Below are positions 19,631 to 58,315 of a stretch of DNA of 64,000 bases, piece after piece. Under the pieces are notes generated by a model. It had not been told where the DNA came from. It saw nothing but the letters and a program-made list of their open reading frames with translations, and did no database searches. This DNA is from a virus (Duplodnaviria > Caudoviricetes): IMG/VR virus record IMGVR_UViG_3300035422_000089, positions 1 to 64,000 of that record. One strand, 5' to 3'. Each line of letters begins with the position of its first letter. Within the stretch, counting starts at the first letter, position 1. The position numbers and the translations under genes are program-made.

Positions 19631-19677
19631 GAAAGGAGCAAAGAGGTTTCTGCGCAGGATAAATCATGATTTACTCC
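19631..19677 (+). promoter_or_regulatory. Methyltransferase leader, family 1 copy A
   Basis: GGAGCAAA-GAGGTTT-CTGCGCAG-GA-TAAATCATGATTTA-CTCC. Confidence 0.75.
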
Positions 19678-19690
19678 AAGTAGATAATTA

Positions 19691-20494
19691 ATGGCAAAAA
19701 TTGAAAATGATAAATATTATACGCCTATTGGACTGGCAAATTATTGTTGGGATAAGGTGCTTGATATAATAGGAGAGCAAAATATATCTGAAATTATTGA
19801 GCCAAGTTGCGGAGATGGAGCATTTTATCATCACCCAATAAAAATCCCGCATTTTGGATATGATATAGAACCACAATGTAACTTTAAAAATATAATAAAA
19901 GATGATTATTTGAAACAAGATATTACATATCTCTGTGGACGATTGGTTATCGGCAATCCTCCATATGGAAGATGTATGAATATGGCACAAAAGTTTTATA
20001 AGAAGTCTATTGAAATTGCAGATTATATAGCATTTATTCTTCCAATATCTCAATTAAATAATACTCGTTCAATGTATAAATTTGATTTGATTTATAGTGA
20101 AGATTTAGGCGTTCATCATTATACAGATAGGGATTTGCATTGTTGTTTTAATATTTATAAAAGACCCGAAAATGGTGAGCCAAACAAAAAAACAGTATCA
20201 AAATTGAAAGATATTTCAATTTATAGACAAGATAGCAAAGGGTATGACAATAAGGATTTTGATATCAGAATGTGTTATTGGGGAGATGGAACAGCTGGTA
20301 AAATTTTAAAAGATGAAGAACATTATTCTGCTGAATATAAAATTAAAGTAAATAATGTAGAGAAAAGAGAAGAAATTATTAATGTGCTGTCAACATTTGA
20401 TTGGAAATCATATTTGAATTGTATAGCTATGAGGAAAATTCAACAATTTCATATTATTGATGTATTGAAACAAACTATATGTGGCATTAGTTAG
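19691..20494 (+). CDS. Amino (N6A/N4C) DNA methyltransferase, gamma-type motif order
   Basis: IEPSCGDGAF (motif I) followed by IGNPPY (motif IV). Confidence 0.8.
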   Translation: MAKIENDKYYTPIGLANYCWDKVLDIIGEQNISEIIEPSCGDGAFYHHPIKIPHFGYDIEPQCNFKNIIKDDYLKQDITYLCGRLVIGNPPYGRCMNMAQKFYKKSIEIADYIAFILPISQLNNTRSMYKFDLIYSEDLGVHHYTDRDLHCCFNIYKRPENGEPNKKTVSKLKDISIYRQDSKGYDNKDFDIRMCYWGDGTAGKILKDEEHYSAEYKIKVNNVEKREEIINVLSTFDWKSYLNCIAMRKIQQFHIIDVLKQTICGIS

Positions 20495-20531
20495 ATATTA
20501 AATTAAATAATATACAAGATACAAAATAAAG

Positions 20532-20590
20532 AAAGGATACGAATGTTCACTAGTGAAGAAAGCTGCGCAGCTACTAAGTAATGGTGAACA
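20532..20590 (+). promoter_or_regulatory. Methyltransferase leader, family 2 copy F
   Basis: 57/59 identical to 31729..31787; palindromes TTCACTAGTGAA and AGCTGCGCAGCT; outer stem TGTTCAC/GTGAACA. Confidence 0.8.
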
Positions 20591-20593
20591 AAA

Positions 20594-21361
20594 ATTAAAG
20601 TATTAGAATTATTCGCAGGAACTTGTTGCTTATCAAACGGATTCAAAGCAAGAGGACATGAAACATATACGATTGATATTGATAAACAATTTGATGTTGA
20701 TTGGCATATGGATTGTAGCAAGATTACTACAAAGGATATTATTGAAAGATTTGGTGTACCAGATGTTATTTGGTTAGGAACTCCATGTCAAAGTTATAGT
20801 ATAGCAGCCATCTCACACCATAGAAGAAAAAATGAAGAATCTGGGAATTTAGATGGTGTAAGCAATTTTGCGAGATTCTGTGATGAAATGAATTGGCACT
20901 GCAGAAAAATAGTTGAGGAATTATTAGAGATTAACCCCAATTTAATTTATTTTTGGGAAAATCCAAGATCTGCTTTTAGAAAAATGGATTTTATTCAGGG
21001 GATACCAAGATATACGATTTGGTATTGTAAATATATGACAGAGTTTCCACCAGAACAAAGAAGAGCCAAGCCAACAGATTTATTTACAAATCATCCGAAC
21101 CCTAAGTTTTTACCTGAGTGTAAAAATGGTTCTCCTGACCACGCAGTTGCTAAACGCGGTATGGCAACAGGAACTCAAGGGATGAAAAATGCAAAAGAAA
21201 GAAGTACATATCCAAAACAATTGGTTGAACATATAGTTGATATTTGCGAGCAGTATTTACACGAAAAAGAATTATTTGATGAATGTAAATCTTGTAAAAA
21301 CAAATGGTCTTCTATGAAGTGTGATATGTGTGAAGACTTTGATATGTATAAAAGGCAATAA
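20594..21361 (+). CDS. dcm: C5-cytosine DNA methyltransferase, probable ATT start
   Basis: (I/M)KVLELFAG motif I from 20594, GTPCQSYS motif IV, WENP motif VI; in-frame TGA at 20585. Confidence 0.75.
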   Translation: MKVLELFAGTCCLSNGFKARGHETYTIDIDKQFDVDWHMDCSKITTKDIIERFGVPDVIWLGTPCQSYSIAAISHHRRKNEESGNLDGVSNFARFCDEMNWHCRKIVEELLEINPNLIYFWENPRSAFRKMDFIQGIPRYTIWYCKYMTEFPPEQRRAKPTDLFTNHPNPKFLPECKNGSPDHAVAKRGMATGTQGMKNAKERSTYPKQLVEHIVDICEQYLHEKELFDECKSCKNKWSSMKCDMCEDFDMYKRQ

Positions 21362-21383
21362 TTATATAGAGAATTATTAAAAC

Positions 21384-21432
21384 GAAAGGAGTAAGAGGTT
21401 TGCTGGCCAGCATTAAAGATTGTCTTTACTCC
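21384..21432 (+). promoter_or_regulatory. Methyltransferase leader, family 1 copy B
   Basis: GGAGTAA-GAGGTT-TGCTGGCCAGCA-T-TAAAGATTGTCTTTA-CTCC. Confidence 0.75.
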
Positions 21433-21441
21433 AAAATGTAA

Positions 21442-56693: not shown

Positions 56694-56933
56694 GTGATGG
56701 GCGAAAATCACTATGTATTAGAATATGATTTCCATATGTATACGATTAATATGGAATGCAAAAGTGTAGAACGGAAACGACTTTATTTTGATAAAGTAGA
56801 AGAATTATTGGAAGAGTATCGAAAGAAAAAAGATGCATTGTTTATGGGATGTATTAAATACAATGATAATTTTAAAATCTATAAAGCGATTTTTGAAGAA
56901 ATAGATATAAAGGGAATTGACATACTTATGTAA
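56694..56933 (+). CDS. Hypothetical protein
   Basis: AAGGAG SD. Confidence 0.6.
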   Translation: MMGENHYVLEYDFHMYTINMECKSVERKRLYFDKVEELLEEYRKKKDALFMGCIKYNDNFKIYKAIFEEIDIKGIDILM

Positions 56934-56978
56934 AAGAAACAATGAAAGATAGGTTTTATTTAAGTAGGGAGGTAAATT

Positions 56979-57188
56979 GTGGATGTAATTAAGTTTTTAG
57001 TTACTAGACCAGATGATACAGTATTAGTTTATTTAATGAAAAACAAATCTGATAATACATATTCGTATGTAAATATAACAAAATGGCACATATGTCCATG
57101 TAAATTTCAATCTATTCAAGAAGCTATTAAGGATATGGATAAATTACTAGAAGAAGGAAAAATTGTGAGATATGAATTTACAAATTAG
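56979..57188 (+). CDS. Hypothetical protein
   Basis: GGAGGT SD. Confidence 0.6.
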   Translation: MDVIKFLVTRPDDTVLVYLMKNKSDNTYSYVNITKWHICPCKFQSIQEAIKDMDKLLEEGKIVRYEFTN

Positions 57189-57222
57189 ATTATTCATTTG
57201 GTTACTTGGAGGTAATTAAAAT

Positions 57223-57615
57223 TTGGAAGTTTTAGCAAAGACAGAATATCAAGATTTATATAGAGTGACAGATGGTGTACTTTTAGTAGTGAATAAATTT
57301 GTTCCTATCGAATATGAAAACGAAAAATATTTTACTGTACATAGAAGAGGAGTTAAACAAGGCAAATATAGTAAAGGATGCCAAGATTGGCTCAAAGTCT
57401 TAAAGGAAGATTACTATGATGAATACAAAAATATAATGGTTCCCAAAGGCACAGTTACATATATAGATAGACCTATAATTCCAACGAATAATCAATCAGA
57501 TTGGAAATATGAGGTTAAGACAACAGGTAGTGCTTTAAGTGGAGATTTTGACACGATTGAGATGCTGCTTAGTTCTATTTTATACACGATCAGGACAGGA
57601 GAGATAGGAAAATGA
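57223..57615 (+). CDS. Hypothetical protein
   Basis: GGAGGT SD. Confidence 0.65.
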   Translation: MEVLAKTEYQDLYRVTDGVLLVVNKFVPIEYENEKYFTVHRRGVKQGKYSKGCQDWLKVLKEDYYDEYKNIMVPKGTVTYIDRPIIPTNNQSDWKYEVKTTGSALSGDFDTIEMLLSSILYTIRTGEIGK

Positions 57616-57965
57616 AATTACTTGAGATATGGGAAAGAATAGGTAAGCAGCCATTGCAGATTACACGTAGAAAAGATGCCATAGTATTTATTGGAGATTC
57701 TGAATATAGAATTAAAAATATCAGATATGATTGTGGTCAATTTATTGGTTTTGAGGCAGAACTAAAAGAACAAGTAGAATGGATAAATAAGGAAATCAAA
57801 CCTAAAGAAGATACATGGATAATTGTCAAAGATAAGGATGGTAAAGAATATAGAAACCATCAGTGGACAGGTCATGCTTGGTATGATTTCGTAATAGGGA
57901 AAGATAGTTGTGATGGATGGAGGAGTGACGTAGATATAGTAAGTTGGAAATATCAGGAGGATTAA
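57612..57965 (+). CDS. Hypothetical protein with DUF551-like C-terminus
   Basis: EWINKEIKPK...DIVSWKY. Confidence 0.6.
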   Translation: MKLLEIWERIGKQPLQITRRKDAIVFIGDSEYRIKNIRYDCGQFIGFEAELKEQVEWINKEIKPKEDTWIIVKDKDGKEYRNHQWTGHAWYDFVIGKDSCDGWRSDVDIVSWKYQED

Positions 57966-57969
57966 TCGA

Positions 57970-58236
57970 ATGGCAGGAACATTAAAAGAGATTACAGAAA
58001 ATTATGAGAAATTACATAGATTACAGATGATAGAAACGATTTTAGATAAAACGCATAGTTATGTTCATGATGTAGTTAGCAGAGTGGAAGACGAATTCGA
58101 TGATTGTGTAGATTTTGAGGATTATATTACAGAGAGCGTGATAAAGAGCACTAAAGAAAATCTTGCTACATTAGGAAAATATTTAGGTTGTAGATCGTAT
58201 GCTGATTTAATAAGTGATGTAATGCATAAACAGTAA
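57970..58236 (+). CDS. Hypothetical protein
   Basis: GGAGG SD. Confidence 0.6.
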   Translation: MAGTLKEITENYEKLHRLQMIETILDKTHSYVHDVVSRVEDEFDDCVDFEDYITESVIKSTKENLATLGKYLGCRSYADLISDVMHKQ

Positions 58237-58267
58237 GGCAATAAAACGCTCGTTTTAAGACCTATAA

Positions 58268-58315
58268 GAAGGAGGAAATGAGGTTTGGTATACCAGATAA
58301 ATGCGCATTTACTCC
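58268..58315 (+). promoter_or_regulatory. Methyltransferase leader, family 1 copy D
   Basis: GGAGGAAATGAGGTT-TGGTATACCA-GA-TAAATGCGCATTTA-CTCC. Confidence 0.8.

Follow-up and report, generated by a model that had tools for sequence, protein, structure and literature searches.

The mom gene of phage Mu is an anti-restriction gene for DNA modification, harmful in excess, that is held back by an mRNA structure hiding its ribosome-binding site, and in the split ribosome-binding sites of phage T4 genes 38 and 25 the Shine-Dalgarno (SD) sequence lies far from the start codon with folded RNA between the two. Here we analyze a leader element of 46-50 bases that bears a likeness to both systems, four copies of which lie in a window of 64,000 nucleotides (nt), namely positions 1 to 64,000 of IMG/VR virus record IMGVR_UViG_3300035422_000089 (Duplodnaviria; Caudoviricetes), each before a known or putative DNA methyltransferase gene. 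In our best reading, which we hold with moderate confidence, the element acts in mRNA, where it clamps the SD and governs the translation of toxic DNA-modification genes. A Mom-family gene is also among the genes found behind the leader. Compared by description, however, Mu uses a single stem-loop over SD and start together with a zinc-finger activator, Com, whereas here the SD lies 45-55 nt away and would be clamped to an anti-SD across two palindromes. Similarly, the T4 hairpin merely shortens the spacer, whereas in this leader the SD itself appears to pair with a conserved complement at the usual SD position. Synthetic bicistronic designs and RNA insulators also provide a standard, self-folding front end that gives context-independent expression, but the leader is natural and has no SD adjoining the gene start.

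Conserved 5′ leader motifs of Firmicute and phage DNA methyltransferase genes are represented in Rfam as well, by D12-methyl and other cis-regulatory motifs. Unlike these, our leaders are matched by no Rfam 15 model: at the gathering threshold the whole window returned tRNA only, and with E values of up to 5-10 no family fitted a leader among the four of the window and three foreign loci with canonical copies. The comparison with Rfam proposed by an earlier sequence-only reading of this DNA, D12-methyl included, therefore gave no identity with a characterised family. Literature searches on the D12-methyl motif, the conserved 8-mer, and palindromes in methylase leaders found nothing relevant and no description of the element, and, as far as its main text goes, the survey of Weinberg et al. 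(2017; PMC5737381) makes no mention of such a motif. Deposited records (50,697 phage records and the PLSDB plasmids) held no copy. The element is a widespread, previously undescribed family of a known general kind.

The sequence-only reading had assigned the four sites one layout, and all four do read as it described, each ending 9-13 nt 5′ of a start codon that has no SD (13, 9, 9, and 10 nt for leaders 1-4). A strong SD (GAAAGGAG or AGGAGG) is followed after 1-5 nt by a second GAGG plus TTT and then by palindrome 1, which is perfect and 8-12 nt long; after a linker of at most 2 nt come palindrome 2 within TAAA..TTTA, ACTCC, and 9-13 A/U-rich bases up to the start codon. The description of palindrome 2 needed a small correction: at three sites it is a 14-nt perfect palindrome, TAAA-N6-TTTA, and at the fourth a 6-bp stem with a 3-nt loop. 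When the window was searched with a covariance model (CM) built from 15 foreign copies only, exactly the four leaders were found, all on the + strand, and the next match had E=3. The leaders with their CM scores, the first SD (SD1), and the genes behind them are as follows.

19631-19677, + strand: leader 1, 54.0 bits, E 3.7e-10; SD1 GGAG 19635-19638; GAGGTTT 19643-19649; palindrome 1 CTGCGCAG 19650-19657, extended through U.G and U-A to 19648-19659; palindrome 2 19660-19673; anti-SD ACTCC 19673-19677
19691-20494, + strand: putative DNA methyltransferase of 267 amino acids (aa); ATG 13 nt past leader 1, no SD
21384-21432, + strand: leader 2, 51.3 bits, E 1.5e-9; SD1 21388-21391; GAGGTTT 21395-21401; palindrome 1 (12 nt, GGCC centre) 21401-21412; palindrome 2 hairpin (6 bp, 3-nt loop) 21414-21428; ACTCC 21428-21432
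21442-22734, + strand: C5 cytosine methylase of 430 aa (PF00145); TTG start 9 nt past leader 2
32331-32378, + strand: leader 3, 38.5 bits, E 1.2e-6; SD1 GGAGG 32335-32339; GAGGTTT 32344-32350; palindrome 1 (12 nt, CTGCGCAG core as in leader 1) 32349-32360; palindrome 2 32361-32374; CTCC 32375-32378
32388-33269, + strand: N6_N4 DNA methylase of 293 aa (PF01555); ATG 9 nt past leader 3
58267-58315, + strand: leader 4, 24.5 bits, E 1.7e-3; SD1 GGAGG 58271-58275; GAGGTTT 58280-58286; palindrome 1 (10 nt) 58286-58295; palindrome 2 (TGCGCA core) 58298-58311; CTCC 58312-58315
58326-59171, + strand: D12-class N6-adenine methylase of 281 aa (PF02086); TTG start 10 nt past leader 4

On the whole virus record of 73.7 kb, a loose pattern gave four forward and no reverse matches, and the reversed-pattern control gave none. 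Among the 67 long + strand open reading frames (ORFs) of the window, 51 have GGAG, GAGG, or AGGA within 18 nt of the start, and the four leader genes belong to the remaining 16. The 267-aa protein behind leader 1 matches the PHROG DNA-methyltransferase groups phrog_5172 and phrog_799 and has no Pfam match, while the C5 methylase behind leader 2 is 37% identical to the methylase of Bacillus phage rho11s. The latter ORF starts after motif I, yet its residues 396-412 match the motif I that the rho11s enzyme has at its N terminus; its arrangement is therefore permuted or split. The D12 enzyme behind leader 4 is 47% identical to one behind a leader in a Clostridia metagenome-assembled genome (locus L264), and the two leaders have palindrome 2 in common but not palindrome 1.

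The outer pairing of GGAG with CUCC, claimed by the sequence-only reading, is supported both by covariation and by RNAalifold, which predicted it unprompted. Among distinct leaders, position 5 of GGAGN/NCUCC is U-A in 49, C-G in 4, and A-U in 2, and at positions 1-4 the departures (about 10 distinct leaders) are all G.U and never A.C, one aberrant leader excepted; pairing of this helix reaches 98%. We also compared an alignment of 54 distinct sequences with shuffles and with slid partners. Paired cells over the whole structure amounted to 96.6%; shuffling lowered this to 81.7%, and sliding the partners to 56% or less. The covariation score was 0.41, a level that none of 500 shuffles attained, against 0.125. 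Without constraints, RNAalifold predicted both the outer stem and palindrome 1, and it lengthened the stem to 8 bp with the loss of palindrome 2, in agreement with the claim that these two compete. Moreover, palindrome 1 has a conserved U at its foot, and the base facing this U is G in 26 distinct leaders, A in 24, and another base in 3, which is the signature of U-A/U.G pairing. The claim of a shared cis element is upheld, and the element has the marks of an SD-sequestering operator: the SD is complementary to a nearby mRNA segment, the pairing is kept, and the whole sits directly before the start codon.

Its position points in the same direction. The leader starts a median of 7 nt past the upstream stop codon, often exactly 3 nt past it, and no more than 30 nt past it in 115 of 160 cases; it therefore leaves no space for a promoter and, occupying the intercistronic gap, must be co-transcribed with its neighbors. 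Contigs from RNA libraries span leaders 1 and 3 into their genes. Both the matches in the window and every downstream ORF examined place the element in sense orientation to the gene. The sole strong SD of the downstream gene (GAAAGGAG, then the second GAGG) is 45-55 nt away from the start codon, on its 5′ side. It is complementary to the conserved ACUCC, which in 120 of 154 cases ends 8-9 nt short of that codon and thus stands where a normal SD would be, as the sequence-only reading had noticed. Because of this distant SD, its complement at the SD position, the sense-only orientation, and the G.U-only departures, we read the element as one that acts on ribosome loading in mRNA. The intercistronic module would be a self-contained, cis-acting translation-initiation unit, in which the two SD/anti-SD strands would close a small junction enclosing two short palindromic modules, and this clamp would set the frequency of ribosome loading at the downstream start. 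Translation might stay low until the helix is opened by the anti-SD of 16S rRNA, by a factor, or by the ribosome that ends the upstream gene 3-7 nt away; alternatively, the clamp would place the distant SD beside the start codon. Either way, the purpose would be a tight, context-independent dosing of enzymes that are harmful in excess.

Several observations weigh against translational control by a clamp. The monomer folds are weak (-6.6 to -12.2 kcal/mol; z scores of +0.16, -0.65, -0.22, and -2.62 relative to shuffles), so that in three of the four window sites they are no more stable than shuffled sequences, and palindrome 2 as a 4-bp hairpin is absent from the RNAalifold prediction. Even with both hairpins formed, the path from either SD to the start stays long for a classical split ribosome-binding site, and a hairpin needs no self-complementary loops, yet all the centres are self-complementary. 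The RNA contigs establish only that leader and gene are contiguous. Covarying inverted repeats are equally expected of a symmetric DNA site, and a C-to-T bias of the non-template strand could yield part of the G.U-only pattern.

The family extends well beyond this phage. Pattern scans of IMG/VR and of bacterial contigs taken as one genome per species, followed by the covariance model, yielded 164 instances, 83 of them distinct; they come from phage contigs of IMG/VR and from genomes of Clostridia/Lachnospiraceae. By their record titles, the bacterial hosts are Clostridia (Lachnospiraceae, Lachnospira, Anaerotignum, and relatives), and 7 of 151 sampled genomes of one such Clostridia order carry 1-3 copies each, a patchy distribution that is the pattern of mobile DNA. 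The window's phage is present in mouse-gut runs of 12 studies, RNA libraries included, and one gene found behind the leader is on record in 742 blocks of a public assembly collection. An ORF starts no more than 16 nt downstream of 154 of the 164 instances. DNA-modification enzymes dominate among the genes behind the leaders (C5, N6_N4, N6, and D12 methyltransferases, PAPS-reductase-like proteins, SNF2-methylase fusions, and Mom), and genes for sigma-70-like, Tn916-Xis-like, double zinc ribbon, and Myb-like proteins are found there too. Palindrome 1 and palindrome 2 each come in about 20 kinds, and they combine freely.

Whether a phage withstands host restriction depends on the orphan methyltransferases of phages and prophages, on Mom, and on PAPS-reductase-like enzymes, which also reshape host methylomes, and dose control is known for very few of them. 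The leader would represent a compact and very widespread control module of the phages of gut Clostridia, common to every methylase class, and could serve as a handle for predicting co-regulated anti-restriction genes and for following how phages exchange anti-restriction cassettes. It may also offer a natural, portable translation front end for the engineering of Clostridia.

Two properties of the leader, both new here, are unusual: it behaves as a portable junction, and the centres of its palindromes are constrained. As to the first, comparison of contigs carrying the same leader places it exactly at mosaic breakpoints, which is why we describe it as an apparent portable cassette junction. 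In a first group of such contigs, the upstream DNA is more than 90% identical up to the leader and nothing is shared downstream; in a second, the downstream gene is shared and nothing upstream; in a third, homology begins only 16-20 nt before the leader. The commonest leader is preceded by at least 10 unrelated upstream sequences. Furthermore, a relative of the window's phage from one RNA library, 90-95% identical to it, is without two or three of the methylase cassettes: it lacks the stretches corresponding to 20462-21380, 29453-30266, and 30321-31728, each of which holds a methylase gene, so close relatives differ in their sets of methylases; its homology restarts 3 nt ahead of the start of leader 2 and 6 nt ahead of that of a leader from a second family described below. 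Near-identity of the 46-nt module between unrelated phages would also make it a patch for gene swaps. At another locus (L211, 671-803), 43 nt separate two leaders, the first of which has no start codon or ORF behind it; this one is a solo leader, perhaps the remnant of a lost cassette.

These observations raise the possibility that the element works primarily in DNA, forming a recombination or cassette junction, either site-specific or a homology patch, through which DNA-modification genes are exchanged, its ribosome-binding features being what any portable gene front end requires. This is the strongest of the alternatives, although we consider it unlikely. Besides the homology that ends at the leader edges, the many upstream contexts, the cassette-less relative, and the solo leader, it is favored by the occurrence of within-leader variants in all combinations, which makes the leader itself mosaic, and by two methylase ORFs of the window that are each flanked by the same CTGCGCAG core. 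Nevertheless, no recombinase consistently adjoins the leaders, though no systematic search for one was made; any conserved functional element of 46 bp would passively become a breakpoint; and recombination has no need of a fixed 8-9 nt gap, of SD/anti-SD logic, or of strict sense orientation. The attC sites of integrons offer a precedent for structured elements of variable sequence that bound promoter-less cassettes, as the leader stands at breakpoints. However, the leader has no RYYYAAC/GTTRRRY cores, its palindromes are perfect while attC sites are imperfect hairpins with extrahelical bases, and it is located at the 5′ end of the gene with a ribosome-binding logic.

The second unusual property concerns the palindrome centres, all of which are self-complementary, though a hairpin would leave the four central bases unpaired. 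Among 56 copies of one family, the linker is free to vary, while the centre of palindrome 2 changes in concert only (GC, CG, AT). At the loci examined, the central dinucleotide of palindrome 2 is AT, TA, CG, GC, or TG, and the other eleven never occur. Across IMG/VR, TG centres were found in 83 true leaders (12 distinct, of five hexamer types), in sense orientation, and CA, GT, and AC centres of palindrome 2 in none; in palindrome 1, the class scanned showed no TG or CA departures, its nine TG matches being perfect palindromes in another register. A symmetric DNA site is blind to the difference between TG and CA, because both are one duplex turned round, and a hairpin loop is indifferent either way, so neither the standard hairpin model nor the operator model explains the TG-only constraint. 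The sequence 5′-UG-3′ over 3′-GU-5′ forms a stable tandem wobble, while 5′-GU-3′ does not, and the TG-only centre is consistent with a self-duplex of the sense strand. We therefore considered that the palindromes could be self-complementary sites for RNA-RNA pairing between leader mRNAs, acting as a concentration-dependent brake on toxic enzymes and serving also as a swap junction, a model we put forward only tentatively and consider unlikely. More transcript would give more SD clamp and more double-stranded RNA, and partners could also be other leaders of that phage with a core in common, such as the six TGCGCA leaders of the window. If true, it would explain the self-complementary centres, the sense-only UG wobble, the weak monomer folds, and the stability of the homodimers, which are predicted to be 13-21 kcal/mol more stable than two monomers. 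A duller alternative, plausible with only five independent types, is that the TG-only centres reflect a strand-biased C-to-T decay of CG centres.

The sequence-only reading had also raised the idea of a DNA-level sensor in which each enzyme recognizes its own target in its leader. In a broader form, the palindromes would be an operator or methylation sensor, bound or methylated by a symmetric protein of phage or host that tunes transcription. We regard this as quite unlikely, although parts of the evidence are suggestive. The perfect two-fold symmetry, centre included, is typical of sites for dimeric DNA-binding proteins, and the concerted centre changes in the 56 copies, with their free linker, are what such a site would show. 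In addition, leader 2 has its GGCC centre before a C5 relative of a phage enzyme, that of rho11s, which we take to methylate GGCC, and GGCC occurs 3 times in the window against 30 expected. There are precedents too: transcription of Mu mom needs Dam sites, and the CfrBI, EcoRII, and SsoII methylases each act at the promoter of their own gene. Identical palindrome pairs, however, precede C5 and N6 methylases and unrelated proteins, and palindromes 1 and 2 assort freely. For instance, the pair GTCGAC + GAATTC stands before C5 methylases, an N6 methylase, and others, leader 1 of the window and that of locus L163 have both palindromes in common with unrelated proteins behind them, and the element is also found before sigma factors, zinc-ribbon proteins, and Mom proteins. 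The spacing of the conserved blocks varies between 17 and 23 bp, the site is intercistronic with no promoter space, and a symmetric site could not separate TG from CA, yet only TG is seen. C-box operators and methylase self-repression likewise involve palindromes before methylase genes, but these are promoter operators with a fixed sequence or the enzyme's own target, whereas here the cores vary and ignore the enzyme; looking for the two features of an autogenous operator or C-box, a palindrome that follows the enzyme and a location at a promoter, we found neither.

The cores had looked rare elsewhere to the sequence-only reading, but they are not specially avoided outside the leaders. With Markov expectations, they rank from 1st to 62nd among the 64 palindromic hexamers for avoidance outside leaders, and the impression that they are the most avoided hexamers, obtained with mononucleotide expectations, failed under this test. 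Phages with GAGCTC leaders and phages with GACGTC leaders each avoid both hexamers about ten-fold, and avoided hexamers are not favored as leader cores. The description of the cores as classic restriction sites is uninformative, because nearly every palindromic hexamer is a known restriction site. What did hold is the distribution of TGCGCA, whose six copies in the window (19651, 20564, 26603, 31761, 32352, and 58302) are all inside leaders, those of the second family included; CTGCGCAG has four copies against 0.1 expected, again all in leaders. Two further routes to an own-target relationship were tried and abandoned: the methylase genes of Bacillus phages rho11s, phi3T, and H2 have ordinary leaders without the element, and a neighboring 603-aa C5 methylase of the phages with PAPS-reductase genes is too distant from the rho11s enzyme to infer its specificity.

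A coupling of the leader to a mini-ORF appears improbable. Here SD1 would drive a TTG or ATG located 7-9 nt downstream, within palindrome 1, and the ribosome, having opened up the structure, would terminate and start anew at the SD-less codon. A start codon is indeed well spaced from SD1 in nearly all distinct leaders, and in many lineages the stop falls between -7 and +4 nt from the main start; the stop abuts the TTG in leader 2 and lies 3 nt before the start in leader 4, and ATGA overlaps occur in the GTCGAC/GAATTC group. Against this, the leaders of loci L059 and L101 have no start codon at all and leader 1 of the window only an internal ATG, the frame is not conserved, as the palindromes differ in length, several mini-ORFs end after 4 codons in the linker, and those of the largest family overrun the main start by 13-86 nt. 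A conserved leader peptide was rejected separately, as frame, length, and stop position are all unconserved.

The last alternative, a small-molecule riboswitch for S-adenosylmethionine (SAM), S-adenosylhomocysteine (SAH), or a related compound, which the sequence-only reading had entertained, is very improbable: although most of the regulated genes use SAM, and conserved nucleotides sit at a junction with variable distal stems, the leader also regulates non-SAM genes, folds weakly (3 of the 4 window sites), matches no SAM or other riboswitch class of Rfam, and has only about 35 nt between the clamp strands, most of it variable palindrome. Like the own-target sensor, the SAM switch goes unsupported, because identical leaders precede unrelated genes and the cores are not specially avoided elsewhere.

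Other candidate functions were discarded. Taking the conserved blocks as a sigma-70 promoter fails on their spacing of 17-23 bp and on poor hexamers, and the promoter-like and terminator-like matches near leaders 1, 2, and 4 are at shuffle level. Excision of the inner part at the RNA level was rejected, as contigs from RNA libraries showed no joint at any leader. A T7-type RNase III site, which calls for some two turns of coaxial double-stranded RNA in a single molecule, was set aside as well: the helices of the monomer are only 4-8 bp, and 12-16 bp would need the homodimer. Some RNA contigs end at 21408 and 21414 (two studies; in or just past palindrome 1 of leader 2), and others start at 20561 and 31758, at palindromes of the second family, which is a hint and no more, as contigs cannot prove RNA ends.

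That second family of leaders is found at 20530-20590 and 31735-31795. Its members carry a pair of perfect 12-nt palindromes, of which one has the CTGCGCAG core, together with a 7-bp long-range pairing in competition with the first of the pair; they precede a C5 and an EcoRI-like methylase, and the CM of the first family does not match them. A cousin (26570-26640) stands before an RNA ligase/kinase/phosphatase gene, whose product (26602-28830; 742 aa) is an RNA-repair enzyme in which a polynucleotide kinase-like P-loop domain is fused to a metallophosphatase and a T4-type RNA ligase 1 domain. Just past the first leader of this family, at 20590-20707, the conserved motif I region (an FAG-type box) of a small C5 methylase is encoded ahead of ATG 20708, the first canonical start, and once past the preceding stop its frame offers no ATG, GTG, or TTG; as far as can be judged from the reading frame, this suggests recoding or an unusual start.

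Another repeat of the window, TRAAA-N6-TTTYA (16 bp), has 26 copies between 1251 and 63114, where 3.7 would be expected; all are on the + strand, and most sit at gene junctions. Leaders 1 and 4 and a leader of the second family have copies a short way upstream (e.g., 19469-19484, 58242-58257, and 31696-31711). It is distinct from palindrome 2, because its N6 is not palindromic. The avoidance of GGCC seen in the window (3 against 30) is complete in 175 kb of related large phages (0 against 113; 20 loci, L030, L075, L087, and L169 among them); several other GC-rich palindromes are absent as well. Finally, in the relatives with large genomes a short AGAGAATAA-like motif is found 4-10 nt before the leader at loci L075, L080, L156, L169, L179, and L190, whose upstream contexts are otherwise unrelated, and in a weaker form at 21365-21383 of the window; it may belong to the mobile unit or represent a promoter element of the phage.

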